64,000 bases of DNA, taken from assembly GCA_964647595.1 (NCBI GenBank), contig CAZYGH010000005.1:34961-98960 (forward strand). The letters run 5' to 3'. Source of the stretch: an uncultured Verrucomicrobiota bacterium. GTDB lineage: Bacteria; Verrucomicrobiota; Kiritimatiellia; CAIQIC01; Lenti-01. Below the pieces are notes generated by a model that worked only from the letters and a program-made list of their open reading frames with translations, was not told the origin of the DNA and ran no database searches. Position numbers and translations under genes: made by a program. This document shows, piece by piece, positions 5,041-63,118 of this stretch (positions within the stretch are counted from its first letter, which is position 1; every line of letters starts with the position of its first letter).

Positions 5041-5805
5041 ATGGATCTCGGGACACTATTAGGTATTCTCTTTGGTGCGGGAATTGTCGTGGGCGCCATC
5101 GCCATTGGCGGTGGCGCCGGCTTTTTCGACGTCCCGTCCTTGATGATTACGATCGGTGGTGCGCTTTCCGCCACGCTGATTAACTTCCCCTTACCCAAAA
5201 TCATCCGCACCATGGGCGTCGTTCGCAAGGCGTTCATGAGCCGGGACAAAGACTATCTGGCCGTCTTTAATCGCTTGTCGGACTTTGCCGTACGCGCTCG
5301 GCGCGACGGCATCCTCGGCCTCGAAAGCGATGTGGAAACTCTGGACGATCCCTTCATGCAGAAGGGGCTGCGAATGGCCGTGGACGGCAACTCCGCAGAA
5401 GTGATCGAAGCCGTTCTCGAGCAGGATATCGTCTCCATGGTGGAACGCCATCAGGTTGGCCATGGCATCTTTGCGGCCTTGGCCAATTATGCTCCCGCCT
5501 TCGGCATGATTGGAACGCTGATCGGCTTGGTTCAGATGCTTCGCAATTTGAGCGATCCTAGCGCGATCGGCATGGGCATGGCGGTGGCGTTAATCACCAC
5601 ACTCTATGGCGCGCTGGTGGCCAATCTGATCGCATTGCCTATTCAAGGCAAATTGGAACAACGAACGGCAGAAGAAGTGGCACTCCGGCGCATGGTACTC
5701 CAAGGCATCCTGTCCATCCAACAGGGCGACAGCCCGCGTGTGGCCCAAGAGAAACTGCGTAGCTATCTGCCTCCCTCTCTGCGGGCAAAAGCGGAAAGTT
5801 CATGA
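5041..5805 (+). CDS. motA: Flagellar motor stator protein MotA
   Basis: Four TM segments with MotA/TolQ/ExbB family motifs (ANYAPAFGMIGTLIGLVQML). Confidence 0.85.
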   Translation: MDLGTLLGILFGAGIVVGAIAIGGGAGFFDVPSLMITIGGALSATLINFPLPKIIRTMGVVRKAFMSRDKDYLAVFNRLSDFAVRARRDGILGLESDVETLDDPFMQKGLRMAVDGNSAEVIEAVLEQDIVSMVERHQVGHGIFAALANYAPAFGMIGTLIGLVQMLRNLSDPSAIGMGMAVALITTLYGALVANLIALPIQGKLEQRTAEEVALRRMVLQGILSIQQGDSPRVAQEKLRSYLPPSLRAKAESS

Positions 5806-6602
5806 GCGCAAAAGAACTCCCACCCAAAAAAGCCGCAATCGGTTGCCCGGGGTGGATGATGACCTTCGGCGACTGCATGTCGCTGCTGGTCACCTTCTTT
5901 GTGATGATGATCGCCTTCTCCTCCATGGAAGAAGAACGCTTGGCCGCCATGATTGGTGTGCTTCAAGGCGCCTTCGGCGTGTCCGATGTTCTCGAGCCCC
6001 CCGGTTTGGTGGAGCGCAAGGCCATCAGCGATACGGAAGTGGCCTCTCCAGAAGATCAGGATGCTTCCATCCGCGGAGAATCCGAACAACTCCATTTTTT
6101 AACGCCCGACGAAATGGCCAACGCGGTGCCCGATTTCATCAACGAAATTCGCCCCAATTCCGTCGAGCTCATGTCGGACCGCATCTTAATCCAAATGCTG
6201 GACGAAGGCCTCTCCATCGTGTTGGAAACAACAAACTTGTTTGTGGAAGGAACCGCCACGTGGCAAAAAGATTTTGGTCCGCTGTGGCAAGGCATCAGCG
6301 CCCTCCTTCAAGGACGCGGAAATGAAATCCGGATCACGTCCATGACCAGCGCCTCGGCCCCGGTTGAACATACCGTGGCCGCAACCAGTTGGGGCCTCGG
6401 CGTTGTTCGTGCTGACCACATTGCCCATGAACTGCAAACCGTCATGAAATCCCCCGCCTCCCGTTTTGGTGTGGGGGTTCAGGTCTATGACGATGAATCT
6501 AAAAATGCCCGAAATGACCACGTCGAAATCCTGATCATGGAAAAGGCAAAGGTCACCGATGTCGGCTCCGAAACCTCCTGGCCCAAGGGGATGTTCCGGT
6601 GA
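5802..6602 (+). CDS. motB: MotB-like stator protein (TM + plug region; no recognisable OmpA-like peptidoglycan-binding domain)
   Basis: ATGA overlap with motA. The N-terminus GWMMTFGDCMSLLVTFFVMMIAFSS is MotB TM/plug-like. The C-terminal half lacks the NxxLSxxRAxxV motif. Confidence 0.62.
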   Translation: MSAKELPPKKAAIGCPGWMMTFGDCMSLLVTFFVMMIAFSSMEEERLAAMIGVLQGAFGVSDVLEPPGLVERKAISDTEVASPEDQDASIRGESEQLHFLTPDEMANAVPDFINEIRPNSVELMSDRILIQMLDEGLSIVLETTNLFVEGTATWQKDFGPLWQGISALLQGRGNEIRITSMTSASAPVEHTVAATSWGLGVVRADHIAHELQTVMKSPASRFGVGVQVYDDESKNARNDHVEILIMEKAKVTDVGSETSWPKGMFR

Positions 6603-7306
6603 AAAAGCGATCTGCTCCAGCCAAAAAACCGGCGCCCACCGCTCCTGCCTATATGGCCCAATATACGGCCTTGATGACCATTCTGCTGGCCTTCTTCATT
6701 CTCATGCTCACCATGGGACACGAAAAAACATCCGGTTTCAAAGATGGCGTCGGCGATATCAAAAATCTGCTGGAGTTGTCCGGGGGCGGAAATGGATTGA
6801 TGAATTTCTGGCGCACCATGCGCAGACCCGGCCTTCCCATGAAGCTGAGCGTCGATGAGACACCCGGCGCCCAACTGGTCGGCTACGAAGAAGATGCCGT
6901 AGATCAGTTCAGTCTGGATGCCACCAGCATCAACAAAATTGGCTTCATGGATGACCGTCAAACCCTACGCCTACATTCCTCGATCCGGTTCGAACCGGGT
7001 CAAGTGCGGATGGATCGTAGCACCCAATACGCACTTGACCAGGCGATTGCCACAATTTACTCTCTCCAAGAATATAATGTTGTGGTGTGCGCATTGGTGA
7101 GTTCGGGTAAACCGGAAGCGGATCGCCTGTTGGCGGCCCAGCGAGCAGCGTGGCTGGTTCGTCATATCACGACCAGCGCGCAAATCCCGCGAGACCGAAT
7201 CCGTGCGCTCGGCCAAGTGGGTAGTCTAGTAGACAAGGAAAGTGGCGAACCCGTTGAGGTCTTGTTGTTGTTGCGCGATAAACGCGATGACATCAATGGC
7301 GTCTAA
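6599..7306 (+). CDS. Second MotB-like protein with degenerate OmpA-like C-terminus
   Basis: ATGA overlap with the preceding gene. The N-terminus AYMAQYTALMTILLAFFILML matches the MotB plug/TM consensus. The C-terminal ADRLLAAQRAAWLVRHITTSAQIPRDRIRALGQ resembles OmpA_C (LSxxRAxxVxxyL...Ri...G). Confidence 0.55.
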   Translation: MKKRSAPAKKPAPTAPAYMAQYTALMTILLAFFILMLTMGHEKTSGFKDGVGDIKNLLELSGGGNGLMNFWRTMRRPGLPMKLSVDETPGAQLVGYEEDAVDQFSLDATSINKIGFMDDRQTLRLHSSIRFEPGQVRMDRSTQYALDQAIATIYSLQEYNVVVCALVSSGKPEADRLLAAQRAAWLVRHITTSAQIPRDRIRALGQVGSLVDKESGEPVEVLLLLRDKRDDINGV

Positions 7307-7861: not shown

Positions 7862-8998
7862 ATGTCTGAACAACTCACACAAGCTGAAATCGATGCGCTA
7901 CGCAATGCCGTGCGCTCGGGAGAGATGGCGGTTGTTCAAGAAACCAAAACAGCCACGCCATCGGATGACATCAAAGTCATTTCCTACGACTTTCGCAAGC
8001 CGAAGCTCCTTTCGGCTGAACGGATGGTCAAGCTACAACTGGTCCACCAGCTCTTGCTCAAAAACCTGCAAACCATGCTCTTTTCGATGTTCAAGATTGC
8101 GGGGGAGTCCAAGCTCAGCGCACTGGAGCAGGTTTCCTACGGCGAATATATGCTGTCCCTCTCTCCCCCCACCTATCTGCTCAGCATTCAGGCCAATCCC
8201 GAAGTCGGCACCTTCGGCGTGGAATTAAGCCCTCCCATGGGTCAAATGTTGCTCGATATGCTCCTCGGCGGCGATGGCGTGGCCGCTTCCACAAGTCCCC
8301 CACACGAATTCAGCGCCTTCGAAATGGAAATCATGCGCACCCTGAGCGATCGGCTCTTGGAAGAGTTGGAGTTGGCGTGGAAGCAAATGCATGAGGTCAA
8401 TTTTCAAATCATTGCCCAAGGGGTATCGCCCGAACAAGTCCAAATCGCCCCGCCCGACACCCCTTGCCTGATTGCCGTGATTGATTTGCGGTTGAACGAA
8501 AAGTCCGTTCGAATGCAATTCTGCTATCCGTTCAACATGCTTCAGATCCTTTTTGAACGCGCGGAAACCACCCGCGACGATCAAGCCGGAAAACGGTCCG
8601 GCATCCGGCAAAAGGTGTTGCGCGCCGTGCAGGCCACCCCCCTTCCCTCCAATGTGGAACTGGGCCGGGCCCTGATGACCGCTGGCGAATTGGGCAGTTT
8701 GTGCGTTGGCGATGTCATCAAGCTGGACCAACCCACCGGTGATCCCCTTCGTCTCAATATCGGAGACCGAATGATTGGAAGCGCTTTCGTAGGCTCCCGC
8801 CGCGGCCGACTGGTCGCGGGCATCAACCACATCATGCGCCCCAACCAATCGCCTACCGACAAGCGACCGCCGACGCCGACGCCCGCCCCTACATCGGCGC
8901 CGACGCCCGCGCCCACCCCCTCCGCTGCCCCTCCCCGCCCACCGGTCCGCCCGCCGGAAAAACCTCAGCCCGATAAATCGAAAGGCCATCCATCATGA
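7862..8998 (+). CDS. fliM: Flagellar motor switch protein FliM (with Pro-rich C-terminal tail)
   Basis: Carries the N-terminal CheY-P binding motif LTQAEIDALR and the conserved ISYDFRKPKLLSAERMVKLQLVHQ... core. Confidence 0.9.
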   Translation: MSEQLTQAEIDALRNAVRSGEMAVVQETKTATPSDDIKVISYDFRKPKLLSAERMVKLQLVHQLLLKNLQTMLFSMFKIAGESKLSALEQVSYGEYMLSLSPPTYLLSIQANPEVGTFGVELSPPMGQMLLDMLLGGDGVAASTSPPHEFSAFEMEIMRTLSDRLLEELELAWKQMHEVNFQIIAQGVSPEQVQIAPPDTPCLIAVIDLRLNEKSVRMQFCYPFNMLQILFERAETTRDDQAGKRSGIRQKVLRAVQATPLPSNVELGRALMTAGELGSLCVGDVIKLDQPTGDPLRLNIGDRMIGSAFVGSRRGRLVAGINHIMRPNQSPTDKRPPTPTPAPTSAPTPAPTPSAAPPRPPVRPPEKPQPDKSKGHPS

Positions 8999-9435
8999 CC
9001 GACCCTAATCAAGATCCCTCCATCAGCGAAATCGAACGCCAAATGGCGGCCATGCTCGAAGAGAGCGAGCTGAGCGAAAAGCCGCAGCCCAAGACCCCTC
9101 CTCCCGCTTCCGGCCCCGTCATTCATCGGGTTGAAATGGATGAGGTCAAAACCGTGCCCCGTGCCGCTCCCGACCCAGACGGTAATCTGAAGCTCATTCT
9201 CGATATTGCGGTGGAAATCCGCGTCGAAGTCGGCAACTCGCGCCTCACCATCAGCGAGTTACTCAATCTGGCCCCCGGCTCCATCATTGAACTGGATCGC
9301 ACCGCCGGCAGCCCCGCCGACCTGCTGGTGAACGGCACCAAAATCGGCCAGGGCGATGTTGTTGTCGTCGACGAAAGCTATGGCATTCGCCTCACCAAGC
9401 TGGTCGATCCGCAGGACCGCATCAACTCGCTTTGA
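8995..9435 (+). CDS. fliN: Flagellar motor switch protein FliN
   Basis: The SpoA/FliN C-terminal domain (LILDIAVEIRVEVGNSRLTISELLNLAPGSIIELDRTAGSPADLLVNGTKIGQGDVVVVDESYGIRLTKL) is present. Confidence 0.87.
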   Translation: MTDPNQDPSISEIERQMAAMLEESELSEKPQPKTPPPASGPVIHRVEMDEVKTVPRAAPDPDGNLKLILDIAVEIRVEVGNSRLTISELLNLAPGSIIELDRTAGSPADLLVNGTKIGQGDVVVVDESYGIRLTKLVDPQDRINSL

Positions 9436-9471: not shown

Positions 9472-10191
9472 ATGAATGTGGCCATCATTCCGGCTCGGGG
9501 TGGAAGCAAGCGCATCCCGCGCAAAAACATTCGCCCCTTCAACGGGAAGCCCATCCTCGCCTATTCCATCGAAGCCGCCCAAGAATGCGGTTGTATCGAT
9601 CGCGTGATGGTCTCCACCGATGACCCCGAAATTGCCGATGTGGCCCGTTCCCTTGGCGCTGAAATTCCATTCCTCCGGCCCACCCACTTATCCGACGATC
9701 AGACCCATCTGGACGCCGTCCTCAGTCACGCCGTCCGCTGGCTCCTCGACCAGGGCCATGCCCCAGAATTTGTTTGCGGCATCTTTGCCACGGCCCCCTT
9801 CTTAACCGGCTCCCTCCTGCGCGAGGGCCTTCAACGACTCCAAGCCTCACCCGAAAAACAGTACGCCTTCGGTGTCGCCAAATTTCCCTTCCCAATTCAG
9901 CGGGCAGTTCGGATCACCCCCCTCGGTGGCATCGAACCCTTTCAACCCGATAGCATGAGAATGCGTTCGCAGGACCTTGAAGAAGCGTATCACGATGCGG
10001 GCCAATTCTTCTGGGGTCGGACAGAGGCCATCTTAAACCGCGCCTCCATTTTTTCACCCACTTCGATTCCCATCGTCATCCCCTCCCATCGGGTCCAGGA
10101 TATCGACACCCCCGAAGATTGGGCCCGCGCAGAATGGTTGCACAAGGCCCTCATGCTATCGGAGAACCATGCGCGCGGCCTTTCGAGTTGA
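9472..10191 (+). CDS. pseF: Acylneuraminate/pseudaminic acid cytidylyltransferase (CMP-nonulosonic acid synthetase, PseF/NeuA family)
   Basis: N-terminus MNVAIIPARGGSKRIPRKNIRPFNGKPILAYSI is typical of CMP-NeuAc synthetase-like (CTP_transf_3) enzymes. It is in the same operon as pseG and pseI. Confidence 0.8.
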   Translation: MNVAIIPARGGSKRIPRKNIRPFNGKPILAYSIEAAQECGCIDRVMVSTDDPEIADVARSLGAEIPFLRPTHLSDDQTHLDAVLSHAVRWLLDQGHAPEFVCGIFATAPFLTGSLLREGLQRLQASPEKQYAFGVAKFPFPIQRAVRITPLGGIEPFQPDSMRMRSQDLEEAYHDAGQFFWGRTEAILNRASIFSPTSIPIVIPSHRVQDIDTPEDWARAEWLHKALMLSENHARGLSS

Positions 10192-11242
10192 TGCTTCTGC
10201 TTCCATCGGCAGCGGCCACCTCATGCGCTGTTTGGCTTTGGCGGAAGCCTTGCGCCGCAGGGAGATTTCCTCCACGTTTCTGTGCCGGGCCTTCCCCGAC
10301 CATGCCGGAGACGTAATTCTCCGCCAAGGGTTTGATCTTCACCTCTTGCCCATCGGCACCCAAACGGCATCGCCCCCGCCCCCTCATGCGGCATGGTTGG
10401 GCGCCAGCCAAGAAGAGGATGCCGCCGCATGTGCCTCACAATGGCCCACCGGAACGGACATCCTCGTCGTAGACCACTACGCGTTGGACATCCGCTGGGA
10501 AACCTCCATGCACCGTCTTTGTTCCATTCAACTAGCCATCGACGACCTAGCCGACCGCCATCACGCTTGCGATGTCTTGCTCGATCAGAATCTTGCCCCC
10601 CAAATGGAAAGTCGCTACGCGGGCTTCCTTCCTGCCACCTGTCGCTCTCTTCTCGGCCCCTCCTATGCGTTGCTCAGTCCCGCCTTTGCCCCGGCGGCCT
10701 CACTGGCAACGGAACGAACCACCGTCCGACGACTTCTCGTATTTTTTGGCGGCGGCGACACCGACAATCTGACGTGCCGCGCCCTTCGCGAACTGGCGTC
10801 TGTGAACCTCCCCGCCGATGTCGTGATCGGATCCGCCAATCCGCATCGCACCGAGGTTGCGTCGCTTTGCACAAGCTCCGACAGACTCTGGACTCTACAC
10901 GTGCAAACGCCCCACATGCCGGACCTCATGCTTCAAGCCGATTTGGCCTTGGGTGCCGGTGGCAGTAGCCATTGGGAGCGGTGCCTACTGGGTTTGCCCG
11001 CCTTGGTCGTCACCACCGCCGCCAATCAACTCCCCTCCACCCGTATGGTGGCAGAGCGCGGCGCCTGCCGCAATCTCGGCACGGCTCAGTCCTTGACCGA
11101 CGGCCAGTTTCGACAGGGCGTTGAAGAACTGCTTCAGAATCCCCACACGCTTCGCGCCATGAGCCGCGCCGCACAAGCGCTCATGCCCGATGGCAACGGC
11201 GCGGAACGTGTCGCATCTACCCTTCTGGAACACATACGATGA
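10169..11242 (+). CDS. pseG: UDP-2,4-diacetamido-2,4,6-trideoxy-beta-L-altropyranose hydrolase PseG-like (GT28-like)
   Basis: N-terminus MRAAFRVDASASIGSGHLMRCLALAEAL matches the PseG start consensus (FR.DAS..IG.GH.MRC). Its position between pseF and pseI supports the call. Confidence 0.72.
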   Translation: MRAAFRVDASASIGSGHLMRCLALAEALRRREISSTFLCRAFPDHAGDVILRQGFDLHLLPIGTQTASPPPPHAAWLGASQEEDAAACASQWPTGTDILVVDHYALDIRWETSMHRLCSIQLAIDDLADRHHACDVLLDQNLAPQMESRYAGFLPATCRSLLGPSYALLSPAFAPAASLATERTTVRRLLVFFGGGDTDNLTCRALRELASVNLPADVVIGSANPHRTEVASLCTSSDRLWTLHVQTPHMPDLMLQADLALGAGGSSHWERCLLGLPALVVTTAANQLPSTRMVAERGACRNLGTAQSLTDGQFRQGVEELLQNPHTLRAMSRAAQALMPDGNGAERVASTLLEHIR

Positions 11243-12321
11243 ACTCCATCCATATCGGTCACCACCTCATCGATGCCAACCATCCGCCCTTCATCATTGC
11301 GGAAATGTCAGGCAATCACGGACAGAGTCTCGATAAAGCCCTACGCCTCGTCGACGCCGCCTCAGAGGCCGGCGCACATGCCTTGAAGTTGCAAACCTAC
11401 ACCGCCGACACCATGACGCTGGACATCCGCGAGGGCGACTTTTTCATCGATGATCCTCGAAGCCTCTGGCGCGGAAATTCTCTCTATGACCTCTACAAAC
11501 TCGCCTATACTCCATGGGAATGGCATGCCCCCCTCTTTGAGCGTGCCCGTGCCCGCGGACTTCTCGCCTTCAGCACACCCTTCGACGCCACCGCCGTGGA
11601 CTTTTTGGAATCCCTTCATGTTCCCTGCCACAAAATTGCCTCATTTGAAAATGGCGACATTCCCCTCATCCGAAAAGTCGCCGCCACCGGCAAGCCCCTC
11701 ATCATGTCCACGGGTACTGCCACCCTCGCCGAATTGACCGAAGCCGTCGCCGCAGCACGAGAAGCCGGTTGCAAAGATCTCATTTTACTGAAATGCACCA
11801 GCAATTATCCCTCCGAGCCCAAGGATGCCAACCTCGCCACCCTTCCCCACCTGGCCGAAAAATTCAACTGCGTAGCTGGCCTCTCCGATCACTCCCTCGG
11901 CACCGCCGTGGCCGTAGCTGCGGTTGCCCTCGGTGCTCGCGTGGTGGAAAAACATCTGACCCTTTCCCGTGCCGATGGCGATGTGGATTCCGCCTTTTCC
12001 CTCGAACCCACCGAACTGGCCCAGTTGGTTCAAGACACTCGAATAGCTTGGCAAGCGCTGGGACACGTCAGCTTTGACCTCACCGACAGCGAGCAAGGCT
12101 CCCGAAAGCATCGGCGCAGTCTCTATATCGCCCAAGACATTGCCGCAGGCACTCCCCTCACGCTCCAAAATGTGCGTGCCATACGCCCCGGCGCCGGTCT
12201 GCCCCCCAAGCATCTCGACAAAATCCTTGGCTGCGTGGCCACCCGTGATTTGAAAAAAGGCACTTCCTTGAGCTGGGATTTGTTCCGCCCCACCACGTCG
12301 GAGACTTCCCCCCATGCCTAA
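11239..12321 (+). CDS. pseI: Pseudaminic/N-acetylneuraminic acid synthase (NeuB/PseI family)
   Basis: FIIAEMSGNHGQSLDKALRLVDAASEAGAHALKLQTY is NeuB-family. The C-terminal SAF/antifreeze-like domain (LTLQNVRAIRPGAGLPPKHLDKILG) is present. Confidence 0.85.
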   Translation: MNSIHIGHHLIDANHPPFIIAEMSGNHGQSLDKALRLVDAASEAGAHALKLQTYTADTMTLDIREGDFFIDDPRSLWRGNSLYDLYKLAYTPWEWHAPLFERARARGLLAFSTPFDATAVDFLESLHVPCHKIASFENGDIPLIRKVAATGKPLIMSTGTATLAELTEAVAAAREAGCKDLILLKCTSNYPSEPKDANLATLPHLAEKFNCVAGLSDHSLGTAVAVAAVALGARVVEKHLTLSRADGDVDSAFSLEPTELAQLVQDTRIAWQALGHVSFDLTDSEQGSRKHRRSLYIAQDIAAGTPLTLQNVRAIRPGAGLPPKHLDKILGCVATRDLKKGTSLSWDLFRPTTSETSPHA

Positions 12322-13315
12322 CTCCTCCCCACCCTCTTTTGCCGCAGGCGGAAACTGGCTCATCACCAGCGCCAGCGCCAAAGTAGATTTGGTTCGGCGC
12401 ATGCGCCAAGCGCTGAATGCCAAGGAACTTCGCCTATTTTCCACCGATCAATCCAGCCTGTCTGCGGCGTTTCATTTCAGCGATGGCCATTTTCTTCTTC
12501 CGCCCATTGAGTCCAGCGACTTCCTCGATCAACTGATCGCAACCTGCCACGCCCACCACATCCGCGTCCTTCTGCCCACACGCGATGCCGACCTGCGATT
12601 TTTTTCCGCTCACCGCGCACCGCTGGAAAAAGCCCACCTGTGGCCACTGGTGTCCGACTCCCAAACCATCGACATCTGCCTCGATAAAATTCAATTCGAC
12701 GATCACTGCTGCCGCCATCACCTACCCGTTCTTCCTCGCATCCACGAGCCAACCCCTTCCGTTTTCCCCTGCTTTGTTCGGAACCGCATCGGCTCCGCCG
12801 GTCATGGCGCCCAACGGGTTCCCCATGCGGATGCCATGCGAATCCTCTACGGCCCGTCCCCGTGGCCCAACCTCCTCATTCAACCCTGTTGCACCGACAA
12901 AGAATACACCATCGATGCGCTCTTCGACTTGGATGGCCAACCCGTGCAATGGATTTCGCGGGAACGCATCCGCACCAAGGCTGGCGAATCCACCGTGGGT
13001 CGCACCGTTTCCATCCCCGCGATCGACGCCCTCCTTCCATCCCTCGCCCACTCGCTCCATCTCATCGGACCCGCCACCATTCAGGTGTTTTATTCCCAAC
13101 AAAATGGCCTCCATCTCATCGAGGTGAATCCCCGATTCGGCGGAGCTGCCGCCCTTGGCATCGAAGCCGGATTAGATACCCCCCGCCGACTCGTATCCCT
13201 CGCGCAAGGCGACACCGAAGATTTCCTGCGCACCCGACCCCTTGAAATTGGAATGACCATGCTTCGCTACAGCCAGGACATTTTCATCCATGAAAATACG
13301 ACCCCGACAACCTGA
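12314..13315 (+). CDS. ATP-grasp domain protein (putative nonulosonic-acid modifying ligase)
   Basis: C-terminal HLIEVNPRFGGAAALGIEAGLDTP is the ATP-grasp Mg/ATP-binding motif. The gene is translationally coupled within the pse operon. Confidence 0.6.
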   Translation: MPNSSPPSFAAGGNWLITSASAKVDLVRRMRQALNAKELRLFSTDQSSLSAAFHFSDGHFLLPPIESSDFLDQLIATCHAHHIRVLLPTRDADLRFFSAHRAPLEKAHLWPLVSDSQTIDICLDKIQFDDHCCRHHLPVLPRIHEPTPSVFPCFVRNRIGSAGHGAQRVPHADAMRILYGPSPWPNLLIQPCCTDKEYTIDALFDLDGQPVQWISRERIRTKAGESTVGRTVSIPAIDALLPSLAHSLHLIGPATIQVFYSQQNGLHLIEVNPRFGGAAALGIEAGLDTPRRLVSLAQGDTEDFLRTRPLEIGMTMLRYSQDIFIHENTTPTT

Positions 13316-13328
13316 AACCACCAGCCCT

Positions 13329-14003
13329 ATGTTGTCCATTCTGGAGCCCTATACCCTCTTCTTTGTCGACATGGACGACACCCTGTTTGAAGAGCGCCAG
13401 TACGTGCTGAGCGGATTCCACGCCATTGCCAACTATGTCGCCCGATGGGGCCTCCGCTCCGACGAGGTGTGGCTGTTTCTTCAGCAGCACTTCGAAACAT
13501 CCGGCCGCGAGAAAATTTTCGATCATTTACTTCAACACTTCTTCGGAACCGTTCGCTCCGAACTGATTCAAGAATTGGTCTGGGTCTATCGCGACCATGT
13601 TCCGCAAATTCAACTCTATCCCGATGCAGCCGAAACCCTGAAAGCCTTGCGCTCGAAAGGCCGCGTCATCATCGTCACCGATGGCCTCACGTCCGTCCAA
13701 GAACGCAAATTTGCTGCCTTGGAATTGGACCGCCTCGTGGATCGCGTGGTGTTTTGCGACGCCATGGGTTTCCCCAAGCCCGACCCCAGTTCGCTTCGTG
13801 GCCGAGTCGAACAAGGCGTACGGAACGCCCTGATCATTGGCGACCGACCCGACCACGATCTCGCGTTGGCGGCCGCTCTTGGCCTCGATTCTGTTCGTGT
13901 GCGCACCGGCCGATTCCATGATGTAGACAACCAACCCTGGAAGCCCATTGCCGACCTGCCGAAGATTTCTTCTTTGCTCGGCCCGGACCCAACGGACACC
14001 TGA
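13329..14003 (+). CDS. HAD-superfamily hydrolase/phosphatase
   Basis: HAD motif I FFVDMDDTLF sits right after the internal ATG, and the distal GDRPDHD motif is present. The upstream ORF extension overlaps the ATP-grasp gene, so the internal start was chosen. Confidence 0.68.
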   Translation: MLSILEPYTLFFVDMDDTLFEERQYVLSGFHAIANYVARWGLRSDEVWLFLQQHFETSGREKIFDHLLQHFFGTVRSELIQELVWVYRDHVPQIQLYPDAAETLKALRSKGRVIIVTDGLTSVQERKFAALELDRLVDRVVFCDAMGFPKPDPSSLRGRVEQGVRNALIIGDRPDHDLALAAALGLDSVRVRTGRFHDVDNQPWKPIADLPKISSLLGPDPTDT

Positions 14004-14004
14004 C

Positions 14005-14652
14005 ATGGCCGTTCCACTCAAGCGAAAACACTTTTACGTGCTGGAGAAGCACTATACCGATCTGGCGGTTCGGCTCCTCCCGCCTCTCGCCAAAATCGGC
14101 CTGACCCCCAATCAAGTCACCCTCGCCAATTTACTCAACGGCCTTGTCATTATGACCGCCATTGCCGGGCACCACTACATCCTCGCCGCCCTTCTCACCC
14201 AGCTATACCTGTTCCTCGATATTCTCGATGGGAATTTGGCTCGCTATCGAGAAATGTCCACCCCGCTCGGCGCCGTCTTGGATAAAATCGGCGACCGCTT
14301 TTTTTACAATGGCGTCATGATCGTCCTCGGCCTCACCACCCCCGTCCACTGGATCTGGATCGTGCTCTTTTTGCTGGCTCACAACCTGCACTCCATCGCC
14401 GCCACTTACTACATTGTTCCCACCATCCGAACCCTGCCCACCTTCAAACGGTTCGGCCTGAAAAAAGTATGGATGAATCACGGCTACATCCTCGGCATGG
14501 ACCTGTCCACCCAAGACCTGCTGATCTCTCTCCTGATTGTCACGCCAGGGCGCGTCTGGATTCTCCCCGCCGTCACCATCCTCTATCTGGTGGACCTGAT
14601 CTATCGCCTCATCGAGCTGGAACAAAACCGCCGCCTCTCCCCTGCGGCATGA
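14005..14652 (+). CDS. CDP-alcohol phosphatidyltransferase family membrane protein
   Basis: Carries the family motif D-G-x2-A-R-x8-G-x3-D-x3-D (DILDGNLARYREMSTPLGAVLDKIGD) and multiple TM helices. The internal ATG (MAVPLKRKH) was chosen as start. Confidence 0.7.
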   Translation: MAVPLKRKHFYVLEKHYTDLAVRLLPPLAKIGLTPNQVTLANLLNGLVIMTAIAGHHYILAALLTQLYLFLDILDGNLARYREMSTPLGAVLDKIGDRFFYNGVMIVLGLTTPVHWIWIVLFLLAHNLHSIAATYYIVPTIRTLPTFKRFGLKKVWMNHGYILGMDLSTQDLLISLLIVTPGRVWILPAVTILYLVDLIYRLIELEQNRRLSPAA

Positions 14653-14700
14653 CATCTGCTTGAACAGGACGCAGATCGAGATCGTAAAAAGGATGAACCT

Positions 14701-15114
14701 ATGAAAACCGTCATCACCTATGGAACCTTCGACCTTTTTCATGTGGGACATTTACGCCTGCTGGAACGCGCGCGTTCGCTGGGGGATCGCTTGGTGGTCG
14801 CGGTCTCGACCGACGAATTCAACTCCGGCAAAGGCAAACGAACCCTCATCCCCTACCGGGATCGATCCGCCATCGTTCAGGCCATTCGTTGCGTCGATAT
14901 TGTCATTCCTGAAACCAACTGGGCGCAGAAAACTGATGATATTCATCAATTCAACGTCACCACCTTCGTCATGGGCGAAGACTGGAAAGGCAAATTTGAC
15001 GAGCTGAAAGAACTGTGCGAAGTCGTTTATCTACCCCGCACCGAAGGCATTTCCACCACCGAACTGAAGCAATCTATGGCCCTGCTAGGACAAATCATCC
15101 GAGAACTGCATTAA
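14701..15114 (+). CDS. Cytidylyltransferase, glycerol-3-phosphate cytidylyltransferase (TagD)-like
   Basis: N-terminus MKTVITYGTFDLFHVGHLRLLERAR carries the (H/T)xGH nucleotidyltransferase motif. Size (137 aa) matches TagD. Confidence 0.8.
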   Translation: MKTVITYGTFDLFHVGHLRLLERARSLGDRLVVAVSTDEFNSGKGKRTLIPYRDRSAIVQAIRCVDIVIPETNWAQKTDDIHQFNVTTFVMGEDWKGKFDELKELCEVVYLPRTEGISTTELKQSMALLGQIIRELH

Positions 15115-15124
15115 TGGCCGCACG

Positions 15125-16234
15125 ATGAGTTTGTCCCGTCCGATCCAGTTGGCCTTTTGCATCGACGATCGCTTTGCCCCTCCTCTCGCAACGCTGTTGC
15201 ACAGTTTGCAAACGCATTCACGCGCGGACCTGGGCGTTCAAGCCCATGTCGTCGGAAACCTGTCCTCCCCCATCCGCGACAAACTCTCCACCCTCTCTCG
15301 CCCCGATTTCGAAATTCATTTTCACACTCAGGTTCCCGACTTCAGCCACCTCCACATCAGCCCCATCTACGCCACCCGACTCAGCCAAGCCACCTATCAT
15401 CGATTGGCCCTCCCCGCCCTCCTCCCCAACGTCAACCGCATCTTGTATCTGGATGCCGACATGATCGCGCTGGACGATTTTTCCACACTGTGGAAAACCA
15501 ATCTTCAAGGCCGCTCCACCGGCGTCGTGCAGGACTACTTTTTGAGCCATCAAGAACGCTGGAAAGTCTTGAGCCTTCCGTTCCCTGAATATTTCAATGC
15601 CGGCATGCTCCTTATGGATCTGGATCAGTGGAGGTCTCAAACCATCAGCGAACGCGTCGCACAGGCCGTCGCCGAACATCCGAATTGGGAATATAACGAC
15701 CAAGACGGCTTAAACGTAGTGCTAAATGGCCAATGCCAATTCTTGGATCCGCGATGGAACGCCACGACAACGCGGCTCCAAGGAAATGCCGTTGACCACC
15801 CTGTTTTCATTCACTTCACCGGCCAAGAAAAACCGTGGCACGTTTCATCCGTCCATCCCTTTCGGGAAGCCTATCGCGAACACAAGCAGCAAACACCGTG
15901 GCGCGACGAACCCCTGACGCATTTTTTGGATCACGAAGACCAGCGCATCCTTCAATCGCTTCAGACTTCCCTTCCCCAAGGCGGCGCCATCGCCATCTAC
16001 GGATGCGGCGCACGGGGACGCCGTCTCGCCCTCTTCCTCCAAGCCCACCACCCGGCATTCTCCATCCGCTTCATGGTAGACCGAGCCGCTTCCAACGAAT
16101 GGAATGGAATCCCCGTCTATCGGCAACTGCCCGAGGAAACCCTCGACGCACTTCTCATCGCCTCCATTCCCTATCGCGACGAAATCCTCAAGAGCCTTCC
16201 CCCCGCCCTTCTGTCACAGGTCAACATCATTTAG
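15125..16234 (+). CDS. Family 8 glycosyltransferase with C-terminal Rossmann-like extension
   Basis: The GT8 DxD region RILYLDADMIALDDFSTLW is present. The C-terminal AIAIYGCGARGRRLALFL region has a GxGxxG-like motif. Confidence 0.68.
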   Translation: MSLSRPIQLAFCIDDRFAPPLATLLHSLQTHSRADLGVQAHVVGNLSSPIRDKLSTLSRPDFEIHFHTQVPDFSHLHISPIYATRLSQATYHRLALPALLPNVNRILYLDADMIALDDFSTLWKTNLQGRSTGVVQDYFLSHQERWKVLSLPFPEYFNAGMLLMDLDQWRSQTISERVAQAVAEHPNWEYNDQDGLNVVLNGQCQFLDPRWNATTTRLQGNAVDHPVFIHFTGQEKPWHVSSVHPFREAYREHKQQTPWRDEPLTHFLDHEDQRILQSLQTSLPQGGAIAIYGCGARGRRLALFLQAHHPAFSIRFMVDRAASNEWNGIPVYRQLPEETLDALLIASIPYRDEILKSLPPALLSQVNII

Positions 16235-16638
16235 CCCGGCCGCCCTTGGCTAGCAGCTAATTCGCGCTGCACCACCGTGAGAAGGCCCATCACATCGCCT
16301 TTCTCTAAACTGTCCTGCGCGCCCGCACGAATGGAAGCCTTTCGGGCCTCCTCATTCACCGAACCCGAAACCACAATGAACGGAAGATGTGGGAACCGAG
16401 CTCTCACCAGTTCAAGAGCCGCAGAAGAGCTGAAGCGGGGCATGTTGTGGTCCGACACCACGAGGTCCCATGCCTTTTCCTCAAAGGCCACAGCCAAGTC
16501 CTCTGCGTTATCCACGCGCCGCGAATCCAGCTCATAGCCGCCGGATCGGAGCTGCTCTTCCAGAAGCATGGCATCCAGCTCCGAATCATCCACAATCAAT
16601 AACCGGATTTTCATTTTTTCGGCGGAAGAATCCGTCAT
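16231..16638 (-). CDS. Response regulator, stand-alone receiver domain
   Basis: RLLIVDDSELDAMLL...LVVSDHNMP...FIVVSGS matches a CheY-like receiver with the expected Asp and Lys positions. Confidence 0.75.
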   Translation of the reverse strand: MTDSSAEKMKIRLLIVDDSELDAMLLEEQLRSGGYELDSRRVDNAEDLAVAFEEKAWDLVVSDHNMPRFSSSAALELVRARFPHLPFIVVSGSVNEEARKASIRAGAQDSLEKGDVMGLLTVVQRELAASQGRPG

Positions 16639-16674
16639 GTCTATTCTCCTCCATCTCAACCGATCGGGTCGCCA

Positions 16675-17121
16675 TCAAGGTCCAGCCGGAATGGGAGAGG
16701 GCTCGTTGATCACGCCCCAAAACTGGCCCAACTCGCGAACCGCCGTCATGAAATCCAAAAAATCCACGGGCTTCACAACAAACGCATTCACTCCATAGGA
16801 ATAGCATTTCATTAAATCGGAATCCTCGCGGGAAGACGTGAGCATGACCACCGGGATCACTCGTAACACGGGATCGCTCTTGATGACCTTCAACACTTCG
16901 AGTCCGTCCACTTTTGGCATTTTGATGTCCAACAAAATCAACGCAGGGGGACCACTGGTGCGCGAGGCATAGGAACCTCGGCGAAACAGAAAATCCAACG
17001 TCTCGGCGCCATCCGCCATTCGCTCAATGGGGCAAACCACCTTCCCTTCGCGCAAGGCCGCAATGGTCAATTCGGCATCATGTGGATTATCTTCGGCAAG
17101 CAACACATAGCGGTCGATCAT
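16675..17121 (-). CDS. Response regulator, stand-alone receiver domain
   Basis: VLLAEDNPHDAELT...LILLDIKMPKVDGLEVLKVIK...VVMLTSS matches a receiver domain. Its start overlaps the kinase stop (ATGA). Confidence 0.8.
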   Translation of the reverse strand: MIDRYVLLAEDNPHDAELTIAALREGKVVCPIERMADGAETLDFLFRRGSYASRTSGPPALILLDIKMPKVDGLEVLKVIKSDPVLRVIPVVMLTSSREDSDLMKCYSYGVNAFVVKPVDFLDFMTAVRELGQFWGVINEPSPIPAGP

Positions 17122-20100
17122 GGGGATGCCTCCTTTTCTGATTTTGCGAAATTCATGGGCAGAGAAAAATAAAACGACGCCCCCTTGTCCACTTCGCCTT
17201 CGGCCCATGTGCGCCCACCGTGACGCAACACGATTCGGCGTACGTTGGCCAACCCAATGCCCGTGCCCTCGAACTCCGATTCACCATGAAGGCGCGAAAA
17301 CACGCCAAACAACTTGTTGGCATATTTCATATCAAAGCCGGCGCCATTATCGCGCACGCACACAATGATCTCGTTGCCTTCGGTCTTGGCCGAAATATCG
17401 ATTCGGGCCACTTCACGCTTGCCCGAATATTTAACGGCATTCCCCAGCAGGTTTGCCATCACCTGTCGCAACAACGGCCGATCGGCGTGCACCTGCGGCA
17501 ATTCGCCAATCGTCCACTCGATCGAGCGCCCCTTCATTTCCAGCTCAAGTTCTTTTTTGCACTCCTCGACCATCTCGGCCAATGGAATGGGCTCGACGTT
17601 AATCTGGGCGCGACCCGTGCGGGAGAAGGACAGCAAGTCATCAATCAACGTGCCCATCCGCTTGGCGGCACCCGCAATCACGTCCAGATAACGAAAGCCG
17701 GTTTCGTCGAGCTTGCCTTTGGCGTTGCCTTGCAGCAACTGAACAAAACCCGACACATGGCGCAACGGGGCACGCAAGTCATGAGACACCGAATACGAGA
17801 ACGCTTCCAATTCTTTGTTTGCGCCAACAAGCGCCTCTTCGCTCTTCAACAGAGAGGCCTCCACGATGCGTCTGCGCCGAATCTCCGCCGCCATCCGCCG
17901 ATTCCAATACGTGAACAATCCCAGCAAGGCGGCAATGCCCGCCACATATTTATAGAGCTTCGCATAGTCAATGCGCTGATCGTAGACCACCGTCATCCAT
18001 CGCCGGGCCATCGTGATTTTTTCCTCTTCGTCGATCCCCTCCATCGCCTTCGTTAAAATCTGCGCCAAGATTTTGGTGTCGGAGCGAACCGCAAAGGCCG
18101 GTTGAAACACAAAGTCAAAATCGCCCGCCACCTTAATGCGCGAATGCCCACCGAGCTGGATGTAATAGCTCCCGACCAGTAGAGGCGCCACAAAGGCATC
18201 CAGTTCCCCCGCCTCCAACTGCTGAAGCGCACGGGGAGCATCATAAACGGTAGAAACATTCAACCCTGGCACCCGCTGCTGAAGCTGGGTGTCCATCCCA
18301 TAGCCCACCAGTACCGCCACCCGCAGATCTTTCAACTCCGAAATGTTGGCAACGGGCTTCGTGTTTTCATGAGTAAAAATCGCAGAAGGAAGAGCCTGAT
18401 AGGGCGCCGAGAATTCAATCTCCAACTGCTTTGCACTGGCTCGGTTCAGGGAGGAAAGCATATCCACCTCCCCATCGCGCAATTTCGCCTGAGCCTGACG
18501 CCAGGAGGGAATCGCCACATGCTGAAACGTCACGCCCAGCGCATGGCCAAAACGATCCAAATAGTCGTATCCAATGCCCGCAAATCCACCGCTCGAATCC
18601 GTGAACTCCAGCGGCGCCAAATGCGGATTGCTTCCCACCCGAATCACCGGATTTTTTTCCAGCCATTCTTTTTCCTCGGGCGTAAGCTGGACCCACGACA
18701 ACTCCGTCATCTGGTTCCACGTCTCTCCGCCCCAGCGTTCAAAAACGGCCTGCACCGCTGCCACCGGCATGGAGGCCATGGCGGCATTCAAGACCGAGGC
18801 CAACAGAGGCAAATCCGCGCGTACACCCATGCACGAAACCGATTCAATTTCCCACACGGTTCCCTGCACCTGCAAGTCCATGTACATCTCGTGTGACAAC
18901 GTCCAAACCGCCATGGCACGACCACCCACAAAGGCATCCGCCTGATGAGTCGAGACCGCCTCCAAGGCATTGCGCACATTTGGATATTCCTTCAGGCGAA
19001 GACCGTGCCGATTTTTCTTCAAATGCGCAGCCGCCGGGAAGCCGGATACCACTGCCACTGTACGATTGGAAAGGCTATCCAAGCCCACGAAATGCCCCTC
19101 GCCCTTTCGGCTAACCATCACGTTGGGAATGTTGGCGTAAGGCTTTGTACACAACATTCCCGTTTCAGCCTGAGTAGGCGAGGCATCCAAAATCGCCTCC
19201 AAATTCCCCGCACGAAACTCTTTCTCCAACTGCGCCCGCAACCCTGTCACCCATTCAATCCGGCCATCCAGACGCTCATTGGCATACTCAACAAAATCCA
19301 CCCCCAACCCGCGCACGTCGCCCGACAAATCCACATAGCTCATCGGAGGCACATCGGTGGGCACCCCCATGCGAATTCTAGGATTCCCCGCCAACCACTC
19401 CTTCTCTGCGGAACCGACCTCGAAGCGTCCTCCCGTTTCCACCGCCATCGAAAACCACTTGGCGCGCAAATATCGTCCATGATGTTGGAGCGCATCGCCC
19501 AATGCCCGGTCCAAAATACCGGCCAGTTCCGGCAACTCTTTGCGCACCCCGATGCAGAGGGCCGAGGGCACATCATCGTTGCGCCCTTGAACATGCAAAT
19601 TAGACAACATCTCCCTCGCTAACAGATACAGCGCGACCGCTCGATTTCCCATAAAGACCACCGAGTCACCCCGAGAAACCGCGTCTAACGCCGCGCTGGC
19701 ATGGTCATACGTTCGGATACGGGCCCGCGATTGTTTCTGCTCCAACCATCTTGCCTCGGGCCGCCCTTTTTCCACAGCCACCGAAGTGCCCGTCAGTTGT
19801 TTTTCATTCCTGAAAAATCGGCTTCCACCCATCCGTGCCACAAACACCACCGGAACGTCCAGATAGGCCTGGGTATACGTCAGGACATCATCGTCACCGC
19901 CGCCGGGCGTGGCATCCATCACCGCATCCAGTTCACCCGCTTTCAACCGCGTCATCAGTTCACTTGAAGTCCCCGATTCAAGATGAATTTTCCCCCCAAG
20001 CCACACATTCATCTCCTCGAGCAAATCCACGCCAAACCCAACCGGGTTGCCATGTCGATCCGTGAAATGCAAGGGCGGATAATCTGCCATCACTCCGATG

Positions 20101-20252: not shown

Positions 20253-20388
20253 AATTCGTTGACGATAAGCAATGGCCTGCCTCTTTGCCAGAAATATTCA
20301 CCCGTCTCACCTATTTTTCCATTCCCAGTTCCGTTGCCATTTGGGCAGCCCGGTGGTAGCCTAACAAGGTAATTTCTTTGTACCCCCT

Positions 20389-21453: not shown

Positions 21454-21469
21454 TCTCCACCTTCGCCGC

Positions 21470-21883
21470 TTACGCGTCGGCAAATTCCTTTTTCAACGCC
21501 TCCAACAAGCGCGCCGATTCCTGTTCGACCGAGGCCAGCAAACGGCGCGCCTCCTCCAGCTTTCCAGCATTCGCCCGCGACTCCATTTGCAGCGCCACGG
21601 AATGCAAAGCAATGCCGCCCATATTGCCCGCTCCGCCCTTGATCGTGTGGGCCTGCAAGCGTAGCGCCTCGGCATCCCCCTCCGCCACCACCCGACGCAG
21701 CGCCGTGATTTGCTCGGGATGCATCTTCATATAGATTTGGGCCATGCGGCAGGCCAACTCTCGCAGCCCCCCCATTCGCTTCAGCATGCCCGCCACATCC
21801 AACACTACAGGCGACTCCTCCATGGGCGTTGCGGTGGGTTCGTCATTCATCCGTTCACCGTTCAAGGAGAAAAATGAACTCAC
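21470..21883 (-). CDS. Histidine phosphotransfer (Hpt) domain protein
   Basis: Carries the HTIKGGAGNMG motif with the phospho-accepting His. The start may be at an internal ATG (MNDEPT or MEESP). Confidence 0.75.
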   Translation of the reverse strand: MSSFFSLNGERMNDEPTATPMEESPVVLDVAGMLKRMGGLRELACRMAQIYMKMHPEQITALRRVVAEGDAEALRLQAHTIKGGAGNMGGIALHSVALQMESRANAGKLEEARRLLASVEQESARLLEALKKEFADA

Positions 21884-25476: not shown

Positions 25477-25477
25477 C

Positions 25478-26407: not shown

Positions 26408-26423
26408 GATATACCTCGTTCGA

Positions 26424-60992: not shown

Positions 60993-61012
60993 AATGACCT
61001 ATTCTATCCCGC

Positions 61013-63025: not shown

Positions 63026-63118
63026 GGCCCCATTTTCAGGTTTGACGGCCCCACCCCCACGGGCCTATTCTTCACCTACTGTGTTTTGTTAATATGCTTT
63101 TGCCCCAAGGAGTGCCTC

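Follow-up and report, generated by a model that had tools for sequence, protein, structure and literature searches.

A pseudaminic acid-based flagellin glycosylation island with two uncharacterized enzyme modules in a Verrucomicrobiota bacterium

A pseudaminic acid island at the end of a flagellar operon

An eight-gene glycosylation island was examined in a 64,000-nucleotide stretch of DNA from an uncultured Verrucomicrobiota bacterium (positions 34,961 to 98,960 of contig CAZYGH010000005.1, assembly GCA_964647595.1; this whole stretch is called the window below). The island belongs to a known general type, the flagellin glycosylation islands based on pseudaminic acid (Pse), and contains two uncharacterized enzyme modules. 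It consists of three modules: the late Pse genes pseF-pseG-pseI, a widespread pair encoding an ATP-grasp ligase and a HAD-IA phosphatase, and a rare, separable set encoding a CDP-alcohol phosphotransferase (CDPOHPT), the glycerol-3-phosphate cytidylyltransferase TagD, and a glycosyltransferase of family 8 (GT8). We consider it probable, if far from certain, that these stacked modules together make a decorated Pse glycan for flagellin, the most likely product being a non-acetyl N7-acyl Pse that would bear glycerol phosphate and a hexose. Several pathogens depend on flagellin Pse to assemble the filament and to move, and the Pse pathway is a drug and vaccine target; the chemical diversity of Pse is known mostly from structures rather than from enzymes.

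The identities of PseF, PseG, and PseI were judged by the curated equivalog cut-offs of NCBI. PseF scored 312 bits with TIGR03584 (cut-off 206) and matched CTP_transf_3 in Pfam, PseG scored 282 bits with TIGR03590 (cut-off 154), and PseI scored 486 bits with TIGR03586 (cut-off 340). A preliminary description, made from the sequence letters and translated open reading frames (ORFs), had recognized the same three enzymes, and the two ways in which it might have erred were not borne out: PseI is not of the sialic acid type, as the sialic acid synthase model TIGR03569 (NeuB_NnaB) gave it 269 bits, under the cut-off of 400, and PseG is not a generic GT28 enzyme, as the MurG model gave it 26 bits only. 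The sole PDB match of PseG was the Campylobacter jejuni PseG structure 3hbm (E 1.4e-12), and the alignment includes the N-terminal G-H motif. By homology, all three are thus genuine late Pse-pathway enzymes.

The island is made up of eight tightly packed genes on the + strand (9472-16234). The start codon of pseF lies 36 bp past the stop codon of fliN, and the successive junctions from pseF/pseG to tagD/GT8 measure -23, -4, -8, -26, +1, +48, and +10 bp. From fliN to the 3' end of the GT8 gene, the + strand shows no terminator-like or promoter-like (sigma-70-like) site, which agrees with the preliminary view of an island joined directly to the flagellar operon at its fliN end. On the 5' side of the island, the window encodes fliI, fliJ, an MgtE_N-like gene, fliK, flgD, a short flgE-like gene, flbD, and motA, followed by motB, a second motB-like gene, fliL, fliM, and fliN. 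The 10 kb that precede the window (L020) contain flgB/C, fliE, fliF, fliG, and fliH on the same strand, together with MBOAT/AlgX genes. Because the upstream flagellar genes all lie on the same strand from flgB onward, the island is the tail of one run of approximately 27 genes and forms the distal part of a long flagellar operon, flgB...fliN.

The early pathway genes are not encoded here. The window was scanned with Pfam across nearly all ORFs of at least 80 amino acids, leaving out a few at 59106-63973 and some that are likely spurious. No PseB-type protein (Polysacc_synt_2/Epimerase) and no DegT/PseC protein was found in the window or in the 10 kb upstream, nor was a GNAT or other acetyltransferase that could serve as PseH, so the absence of pseB, pseC, and pseH that had been noted from the sequence stands. 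The window scans also returned no flagellin, no MptE-like/Maf protein, and no TPR-glycosyltransferase. PseB, PseC, and the flagellin-linking enzyme must therefore be encoded elsewhere in the genome.

An ATP-grasp/HAD pair in the position of PseH

All Pfam (PylC-like_N, ATPgrasp_Ter) and NCBIfam matches of the ATP-grasp protein are below the family cut-offs. Its AlphaFold2 model has a predicted local distance difference test (pLDDT) score of 94, and residues K125, E197, D201, R216, R218, E270, N272, and R274 are invariant in alignments of homologs; the predicted fold and these putative ATP/Mg-binding residues place the protein in the ATP-grasp superfamily. Since the top Foldseek match is an uncharacterized structural-genomics entry (2pn1), followed by biotin carboxylase, PurK, and PylC, the acid cannot be named from homology. 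The top NCBIfam match of the HAD protein, TIGR02253 (CTE7), is likewise below its cut-off, and the ThrH model gave E 0.003 and 17 bits (cut-off 133).

A metagenome profile scan for relatives of the pair returned at least 577 matches, both fused and unfused, of which the best 80 loci were examined. Among these 80, pse genes were present at 46 loci, and the HAD domain was directly downstream of or fused to the ATP-grasp domain at 42 of the 65 loci with room for it; CDPOHPT occurred at none of the 80. Many ATP-grasp homologs (35-40% identity) are single ATP-grasp--HAD fusions of approximately 565 amino acids with the HAD domain at the C-terminus, and these fusions imply that both enzymes act in one pathway. 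Such fusions are frequent in metagenomes, and those within pse operons include L036 9983-11698, L038 9320-11149, and L088 9968-11569, as well as P0146, P0148, P0195, and others. PseG-ATP-grasp fusions were sought as further evidence of linkage and none was found.

The position of the pair in complete operons bears on its role. In Agarivorans the genes are arranged as pseB-pseC-pseF-pseG-(ATPgrasp-HAD)-pseI beside maf-fliS-fliD, and this order recurs in an Acidobacteria Wzx/Wzy locus, in L021, L025, L026, L034, L042, and L056, and in others; in Mangrovitalea sediminis (pseB-pseC-pseF-pseI-pseG-(ATPgrasp-HAD)) pseI is ahead of pseG. The recurrent order is that of the psaABCDEF genes of Acinetobacter baumannii, with ATP-grasp/HAD in the slot of psaE (= pseH). 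In A. baumannii, psaE encodes the acetyltransferase PseH, and a swap of the psaD/psaE segment changes the N7 acyl group to 3-hydroxybutanoyl (PMC9676051). Approximately a dozen contiguous operons combine the genes for PseB, PseC, PseF, PseG, and PseI with those for ATP-grasp/HAD and contain neither an acetyltransferase gene nor an unassigned ORF, and no acetyltransferase was found in the complete related islands L005/L011, L012, L014, and L016. The pair would thus usually take over the N4-acylation step, with ATP and a carboxylic acid replacing acetyl-CoA. A stricter version of this proposal, in which the ATP-grasp enzyme always replaces PseH, was softened, since the operon L076 carries a GNAT gene as well.

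The acid that is ligated may be narrowed by the second enzyme, as a phosphatase that is an obligatory partner implies a phosphorylated intermediate. N-glyceroyl is a substituent of Pse in Tannerella and Campylobacter, and 3-phosphoglycerate as the ligated acid, which would give N-glyceroyl, is an attractive guess by analogy with the mannosyl-3-phosphoglycerate synthase/phosphatase pair. The Pse5Am7Gra locus of Tannerella forsythia was considered as a user of the ATP-grasp/HAD pair and gave no support, as the papers on it report a working PseH and mention neither enzyme. Literature searches that paired ATP-grasp with pseudaminic acid returned incidental mentions only and no paper on a role in Pse biosynthesis. 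The preliminary description had proposed that the ATP-grasp ligase replaces or augments the missing early enzymes and yields an amino acid-amidated or otherwise derivatized nonulosonic acid. A derivatized nonulosonic acid remains our expectation. Substitution for PseB or PseC does not, because the ligase pairs with the HAD phosphatase and occupies the PseH slot only. An amino acid substituent is possible but not indicated, the phosphatase partner arguing instead for a phosphorylated intermediate. The same description had passed over the three most distinctive of the eight genes, those for the HAD phosphatase, CDPOHPT, and TagD.

A CDP-alcohol phosphotransferase paired with TagD

CDP-alcohol phosphotransferases transfer a phospho-alcohol from a CDP-alcohol to an acceptor hydroxyl and release CMP. 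The island enzyme matches PF01066 (E 6e-17), its motif D72xxD75G76xxA79R80...G89xxxD93xxxD97 is invariant among 30 homologs, and it is polytopic, with hydrophobic segments at approximately residues 46-67, 111-129, and 170-196. Its start codon is ATG 14005 rather than TTG 13948, one base past the HAD stop codon. The NCBIfam models of the characterized subfamilies (phosphatidylinositol phosphate (PIP), archaetidylinositol phosphate (AIP), di-inositol phosphate phosphate (DIPP), phosphatidylglycerol phosphate, phosphatidylserine, and cardiolipin synthases) were all below their cut-offs, the top score being 64.5 bits for archaetidylinositol phosphate synthase (cut-off 180), with the others lower. 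Among solved structures, AF2299, PIP synthase, and DIPP synthase are nearest to it. The enzyme is rare: only 80 homologs below E 1e-5 were found in a search of 5.8 billion protein sequences, and it was found at eight loci among 185,579 species genomes.

TagD, by comparison, is readily assigned. It scored 167.8 bits with TIGR01518 (cut-off 165.4) and aligned end-to-end with Bacillus subtilis TagD (PDB 1coz; residues 1-127, E 4e-50), with the HxGH motif kept and GTFDLFHVGH aligned, and by homology it makes CDP-glycerol. Transfer of glycerol phosphate to a hydroxyl of the Pse derivative is the simplest reading, in which the adjacency of the two genes points to CDP-glycerol as the probable donor. 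The HAD phosphatase, CDPOHPT, and TagD are the most unusual part of the island and, taken together, imply a phosphodiester-linked glycerol phosphate.

The GT8 enzyme and its C-terminal domain

The last gene of the island encodes a protein whose catalytic domain (residues 9-239) matches PF01501 (E 2e-46). Its D110xD112 motif and its H230..G233.E235-K236-P237-W238-H motif are invariant, so that both the GT-A DxD and the HxxGxxKPW signatures are present, and an AlphaFold2 model (pLDDT 94.5) retrieved WbbM, LgtC, and GlyE as the top Foldseek matches. Full-length homologs (37-40% identity) are common in Aeromonas, and in the flagellin island of A. dhakensis a 37%-identical full-length GT8 directly follows an fgi-1-type GT2. 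In A. hydrophila ATCC 7966 the same position is taken by the 366-amino acid GT8 AHA_4170, deletion of which truncates the flagellin glycan to Pse-Hex (bioRxiv 10.1101/2024.06.23.600306). Because this deletion leaves Pse-Hex, the island GT8 is best read, by analogy, as a hexose-adding glycan extender and not as the flagellin-linking transferase or a substitute for Maf. The GT8 gene is absent from two of the relatives described below (L017 and L018) and from all Bacillota versions of the island, which argues against a flagellin-linking role. Of the two roles that had been offered for this enzyme at the outset, glycan extension is therefore favored over attachment to flagellin.

The extra C-terminal Rossmann-like domain that had been noticed in the preliminary description is present in the AlphaFold2 model as a beta-alpha-beta unit with an invariant GxGxxG motif (residues ~285-369). 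A Pfam search with the GT8 C-terminus alone gave no match, and the homology became visible only by profile-profile comparison, in which the domain resembled the C2185-like domain of other flagellin-island enzymes (hhalign probability 97.3%, E 2e-11). The C2185-like_N domain (~90 amino acids, precomputed Pfam matches) carries the GxGxxG motif and is found in flagellin islands of several phyla on five types of catalytic domain, namely GT8, GT2, TylF methyltransferase, a (second) CDP-alcohol phosphotransferase, and TagF-like enzymes. It has the appearance of an accessory or targeting module that flagellin-glycan enzymes have in common.

Related loci and the link to flagella

The modular composition of the island follows from the partial and standalone gene sets of its relatives. 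The window sequence itself recurs without change in metagenomic contigs, and a second Verrucomicrobiota metagenome-assembled genome (MAG) contains the same eight-gene cluster after fliM-fliN (L006; 75-94% protein identity). A third locus (L017) reads fliM-fliN-pseF-pseG-pseI-ATPgrasp-HAD-CDPOHPT and then ends, and in a fourth (L018) the same six genes, from pseF to CDPOHPT, follow flgK...rpoN and are succeeded by tagD and a TagF-like gene. The core pseF-pseG-pseI-ATPgrasp-HAD-CDPOHPT is thus kept in two flagellar contexts (L006/L017 versus L018). At the genome loci with enough flanking sequence, including one Bacillota MAG, CDPOHPT adjoins ATP-grasp and HAD beside pseI/pseF/pseG. In Halanaerobiales (L004/L005/L011) the order is fliD-flagellin-maf-DUF8042-pseB-pseC-methyltransferase-...-NTP transferase-CDPOHPT-ATPgrasp-HAD-pseI-pseF-pseG, with flgB/C further downstream. 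In Lysinibacillus sphaericus G25-62 (L012) the first half of the island reads pseB-maf-methyltransferase-TagF-like-tagD-TagF-like-tarI-like-tarJ-like and continues with CDPOHPT-ATPgrasp-HAD-pseF-pseG-pseI-pseC-flaG-fliD. The third module also stands alone: in L101, which lacks pse, ATP-grasp, and HAD genes, CDPOHPT-tagD-GT8 is flanked by a che operon and a gene for a 1256-amino acid TPR/TagF-like/GT4 protein, and in Pelagicoccus CDPOHPT and tagD lie beside a PseF-like gene and che genes.

The flagellar linkage of these genes is conserved. It involves two different flagellar operons and che operons in Planctomycetes-Verrucomicrobia-Chlamydiae (PVC)-type genomes, and in Bacillota and Gammaproteobacteria the modules are part of islands with flagellin, maf, fliD, and fliS at their borders. 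The link to flagellin is by synteny only, yet it is strong. Candidate linking enzymes are encoded in the relatives, namely Maf in L005, L012, and L014 and TPR-glycosyltransferase proteins in L018 and L101.

Several features of the related loci were noted in addition. Large proteins of 1087-1256 amino acids that combine TPR, TagF-like glycerophosphotransferase, and GT1/GT4 domains are encoded near CDPOHPT-tagD (L101 8855-14935; L018 11723-17611). We take their TPR-plus-glycosyltransferase architecture to resemble that of Caulobacter FlmG, and they may be FlmG-type flagellin-directed transferases. At L003 6928-12708, where CDPOHPT and tagD lie by chemotaxis genes, the neighbors are a separate 421-amino acid TPR protein and a 491-amino acid GT4. 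A 614-amino acid asparagine synthase-type amidotransferase is encoded between pseC and the phosphotransferase genes at L011 4241-6085 and hints at another decoration, such as an amidated or acetamidino derivative. In Halanaerobiales a DUF8042 protein is encoded directly 3' of maf (L005 3145-3744, L011 568-1131); it may be GlfM, a protein that a 2026 Clostridium paper (PMC13317340) lists as the 'glycosylation factor for Maf'.

Proposed pathway and alternative explanations

The genes can be arranged into a pathway as follows. The ATP-grasp enzyme would use ATP to acylate the PseC product at its 4-amino group with a carboxylic acid, in place of the acetyl-CoA-dependent N-acetylation by PseH. The ligated acid would probably be phosphorylated, 3-phosphoglycerate being an example, and the HAD phosphatase would then strip the phosphate, following the synthase/phosphatase logic of mannosyl-3-phosphoglycerate synthase and its phosphatase. 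PseG, PseI, and PseF would carry out UDP-sugar hydrolysis, condensation with phosphoenolpyruvate, and CMP activation, giving a predicted product Pse5Ac7R in which R is a hydroxylated, non-acetyl N7 substituent. With CDP-glycerol as donor, CDPOHPT would transfer glycerol phosphate to a hydroxyl of the Pse derivative, forming a phosphodiester and CMP; its acceptor would be a soluble intermediate on the cytoplasmic side of the membrane rather than flagellin itself. GT8 would add one alpha-linked hexose and thereby extend the glycan, as judged from the Aeromonas GT8 of the same class. A bolder form of this proposal holds both that ATP-grasp/HAD is a widespread and so far unrecognized alternative to PseH, installing a non-acetyl hydroxylated N7-acyl group, and that CDPOHPT is the first integral-membrane member of its family to decorate a sugar that ends up on a protein, giving glycerophospho-(hexosyl)-Pse flagellin; we put this forward tentatively, as a possibility about which doubt outweighs confidence.

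A number of observations weigh against the proposed pathway. To our knowledge, the ATP-grasp/HAD pair has no characterized member, so that the acyl donor is a guess, and the nearest characterized structural neighbors of the ATP-grasp enzyme are the bicarbonate-activating biotin carboxylase and PurK, which leaves room for other chemistry. The GNAT gene of the metagenomic operon L076 lies between pseC and the ATP-grasp gene; the pair is therefore not always exclusive of a PseH-like enzyme and may add a substituent instead of replacing the acetyl group. The pair is also found in a Wzx/Wzy polysaccharide locus (L015), and, as it serves such a locus too, it is a general route to a Pse derivative and not a flagellin-specific one. 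We likewise know of no characterized member of the CDPOHPT subfamily, which makes its acceptor hydroxyl and the order of steps guesses, and of no CDP-alcohol phosphotransferase that modifies a sugar, the characterized ones all making lipids or small solutes. L017 has CDPOHPT without tagD, so CDP-glycerol is unproven as the donor; Halanaerobiales islands pair CDPOHPT with an NTP_transf_3 cytidylyltransferase and not with tagD, and with L017 this means that the CDP-alcohol may differ by lineage. Finally, no flagellin, Maf/FlmG-like transferase, pseB, or pseC was found within 74 kb, which is why the connection to flagellin is drawn from gene order.

Some of these observations invite other explanations. 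The cell might make plain Pse5Ac7Ac with a PseH encoded elsewhere, and ATP-grasp/HAD might add a separate substituent (an amino or other acid on O or N, or an N-carboxy group). The L076 operon fits this account; pseB and pseC are also encoded elsewhere in the lineage of the window, so that pseH could be too, and the structural neighbors of the ATP-grasp enzyme include the amino acid ligase PylC and carboxylases. It is harder to reconcile with the roughly twelve complete operons that lack both an acetyltransferase and an unassigned ORF and with the placement of the pair exactly in the psaE/pseH slot, and we regard a separate substituent as rather unlikely, if not to be neglected. Replacement of PseH by the pair accordingly remains our preferred reading of the second module.

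A different possibility is that the position after fliN is incidental and that Pse is made for a surface polysaccharide or lipid (lipopolysaccharide, capsule, or a glycerophospho-glycolipid), with CDPOHPT and TagD making a lipid or solute. The lack of a flagellin or Maf gene in the window, the presence of ATP-grasp/HAD in a Wzx/Wzy locus, the diderm nature of the organism, which has LptE, and the nearest relatives of CDPOHPT, which make phosphatidylinositol phosphate, archaetidylinositol phosphate, and di-inositol phosphate, would all be in keeping with it. Yet flagellar or chemotaxis neighbors were present at every PVC-type locus examined (the window, L006, L017, L018, L101, and L003), the Bacillota and Agarivorans modules sit within islands bounded by flagellin, maf, fliD, or fliS, the operon is unbroken after fliN, and the GT8 class has been tied experimentally to the Aeromonas flagellin glycan, all of which make a surface glycan improbable. 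Still less probable, in our estimate, is that GT8 attaches the glycan directly to Ser/Thr of flagellin in place of Maf. GT8 enzymes use UDP-hexoses and not CMP-nonulosonic acids, AHA_4170 comes third in the chain, once Pse and one hexose are in place, the gene is missing from L017, L018, and all Bacillota islands, and the relatives have Maf or large TPR-glycosyltransferase proteins; these points stand against the lack of Maf in the window, the occurrence of the C-terminal domain on other flagellin-island enzymes, and the fact that some GT8s do glycosylate proteins (glycogenin, and GlyE on serine-rich repeat proteins). A decorated Pse glycan destined for flagellin, with GT8 as an extender, is therefore the reading that we retain.

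Comparison with known systems

Relative to the canonical CMP-Pse pathway (Pse of C. jejuni and Helicobacter pylori; psaABCDEF of A. baumannii), PseG, PseI, and PseF are clear orthologs and the order of the related operons, pseB-pseC-pseF-pseG-X-pseI, matches that of psaABCDEF. The island differs in that its locus lacks pseB and pseC, the PseH slot holds ATP-grasp and HAD, and CDPOHPT, tagD, and GT8 are appended.

The closest parallel in logic is the Clostridioides difficile FtaABCD system, along with the b-type genes PA1088-1091 of Pseudomonas aeruginosa, in which a HAD protein, a cytidylyltransferase that makes a CDP-alcohol, and a phosphotransferase likewise place a phosphodiester on a flagellin glycan. 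In C. difficile type A, CDP-N-methylthreonine is built and transferred to the GlcNAc on flagellin by four enzymes, namely a HAD protein, a cytidylyltransferase, a methyltransferase, and a TagF-like phosphotransferase (PMC10714395; bioRxiv 10.64898/2026.02.12.704994). The Fta enzymes belong to other families, FtaA being a ThrH-like HAD, FtaB an NTP-transferase, FtaC an S-adenosylmethionine-dependent methyltransferase, and FtaD a TagF-like protein, whereas the island has a HAD-IA phosphatase, a TagD-type cytidylyltransferase, and an integral-membrane CDPOHPT. Further differences are the predicted donor (CDP-glycerol, not CDP-N-methylthreonine), the sugar (Pse, not GlcNAc or a deoxyhexose), and the tie of the HAD protein to ATP-grasp. 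No methyltransferase and no Glyphos_transf domain was found in the island, which places it outside the Fta type. As the enzyme families differ, the locus is predicted to work like the Fta system as an analog in logic and not as a member of it. The idea that C. difficile CD0242 is an ATP-grasp protein, which would have made Fta a close relative, was discarded, because the papers show it to be a nucleotidyltransferase.

The group II polar flagellin island of Aeromonas is also Pse-based, and its GT8 equals the present one in length and shares its two-domain architecture. It differs in having a GT2 (Fgi-1/AHA_4171) that adds the first hexose, of which there is no counterpart here, and in having Maf and lux-type fatty-acyl genes where the present island has CDPOHPT and TagD. 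A tagD gene paired with a 'pgs' CDP-alcohol transferase was annotated in the Pse-type flagellin island of Geobacillus (Parageobacillus) thermoglucosidans DSM 2542 by De Maayer and Cowan (2016, PMC5109656), who tentatively suggested a phospholipid modification as its role; we liken this annotated pair to CDPOHPT-TagD. The closest relatives of CDPOHPT itself (IPCT/DIPPS, AF2299, and the PIP/AIP synthases) are membrane enzymes with the same catalytic motif, some of them acting on soluble substrates, and in the IPCT/DIPPS-type systems a follow-up phosphatase accompanies the soluble-substrate CDP-alcohol phosphotransferase. The differences are that CDPOHPT scores far below the cut-offs of these families, no inositol-phosphate synthase is encoded here, and the partners are nonulosonic acid and motility genes. 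With the wall teichoic acid machinery (TagD, TagB/TagF) the island shares a close homolog of TagD, and TagF-like domains are also found in L012, L018, and L101; the window, by contrast, has CDPOHPT in place of a TagF-like enzyme, and the host is a diderm without teichoic acid.

If the proposed assignments are correct, the ATP-grasp/HAD pair would provide an ATP-dependent route to an N7 substituent other than acetyl and would explain the many pse operons without pseH, its relatives spanning Proteobacteria, Bacillota, Acidobacteria, and Verrucomicrobiota and numbering at least 577 in metagenomes. Phosphodiester decoration by CDPOHPT would widen a family that is otherwise devoted to phospholipids and osmolytes, and the recently discovered principle of modifying flagellin after glycosylation by CDP-activated groups would be extended to another sugar and another phylum. 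Culturable carriers exist (L. sphaericus G25-62, Agarivorans, and M. sediminis), so that these predictions are directly testable.

Gene layout and genomic context

The coordinates of the island genes, the two flagellar genes before them, and the C2185-like domain copies in related loci are collected in Table 1. GC content is approximately 0.59-0.61 over the pse genes and steps down to approximately 0.55 over the last three genes, which is weakly consistent with separate origins of the modules.

Table 1. Positions of the island genes, of fliM and fliN (all in the window), and of C2185-like domains in related loci (numbered within each locus)
Feature	Position	Strand	Evidence and remarks
fliM	7862-8998	+	Pfam FliM and FliMN_C matches for fliM/fliN; near end of flagellar operon
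fliN	8995-9435	+	TIGR02480 94 bits (cut-off 84); last flagellar gene before island
pseF, CMP-pseudaminic acid synthetase (cytidylyltransferase)	9472-10191	+	TIGR03584, CTP_transf_3
pseG, Pse-pathway UDP-sugar hydrolase, GT-B fold	10169-11242	+	TIGR03590
pseI, pseudaminic acid synthase, NeuB family with SAF domain	11239-12321	+	TIGR03586
ATP-grasp ligase	12314-13315	+	PylC-like_N, ATPgrasp_Ter
HAD-IA phosphatase	13290-14003	+	Pfam Hydrolase, HAD_2; DxDxT motif (DMDDT)
CDPOHPT, integral-membrane, 215 amino acids	14005-14652	+	PF01066
tagD, glycerol-3-phosphate cytidylyltransferase	14701-15114	+	TIGR01518; PDB 1coz
GT8, retaining hexosyltransferase	15125-16234	+	PF01501; C-terminal domain at nucleotides ~15977-16231
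C2185-like domain copies	L005 6132-6430, 8930-9273; L012 4176-4475, 5203-5530; L018 12936-13265, 19240-19581

The fliO/P/Q/R-flhB-flhA genes do not follow fliN, unlike in many bacteria with such a gene order, and the glycosylation genes occupy their position. The export-gate genes must lie elsewhere, and the placement of the island at the end of an early flagellar operon in place of fliOPQR-flhBA is unusual. Further upstream in the same operon, two consecutive motB-like genes (5802-6602 and 6599-7306) are present, a pair that is shared with L017; in both, Pfam finds the MotB plug region only, without the OmpA-like peptidoglycan-binding domain.

Downstream of GT8 a response-regulator gene is convergent. 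It belongs to a signaling block (Hpt protein, kinase, response regulators) that ends convergently against the GT8 gene, within a region on the - strand (16231-27529) that includes a cell-division and cell-wall cluster, mraZ-mraW-(gap)-ftsI-murE, with no murF-mraY next to it. There, murE is directly followed by the Hpt protein, then by a 390-amino acid ORF without a Pfam match, then by a 1044-amino acid histidine kinase, whose periplasmic part has three SBP_bac_3 domains, and by two response regulators. Besides this two-component system and the part of the dcw cluster (mraZ, mraW, ftsI, murE), the rest of the window encodes, among others, hydrogenase maturation proteins, comEC, efflux genes, NAD synthase, cheX, lptE, and hisF.

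Over most of the window (1-64000) the GC skew has strongly negative values, mostly between -0.15 and -0.43 per kb, and it is weaker or near zero in approximately the first 8 kb and near 22-25 kb. The skew is independent of gene strand and points to a very strong compositional bias between the replication strands, the + strand being the lagging-strand template.

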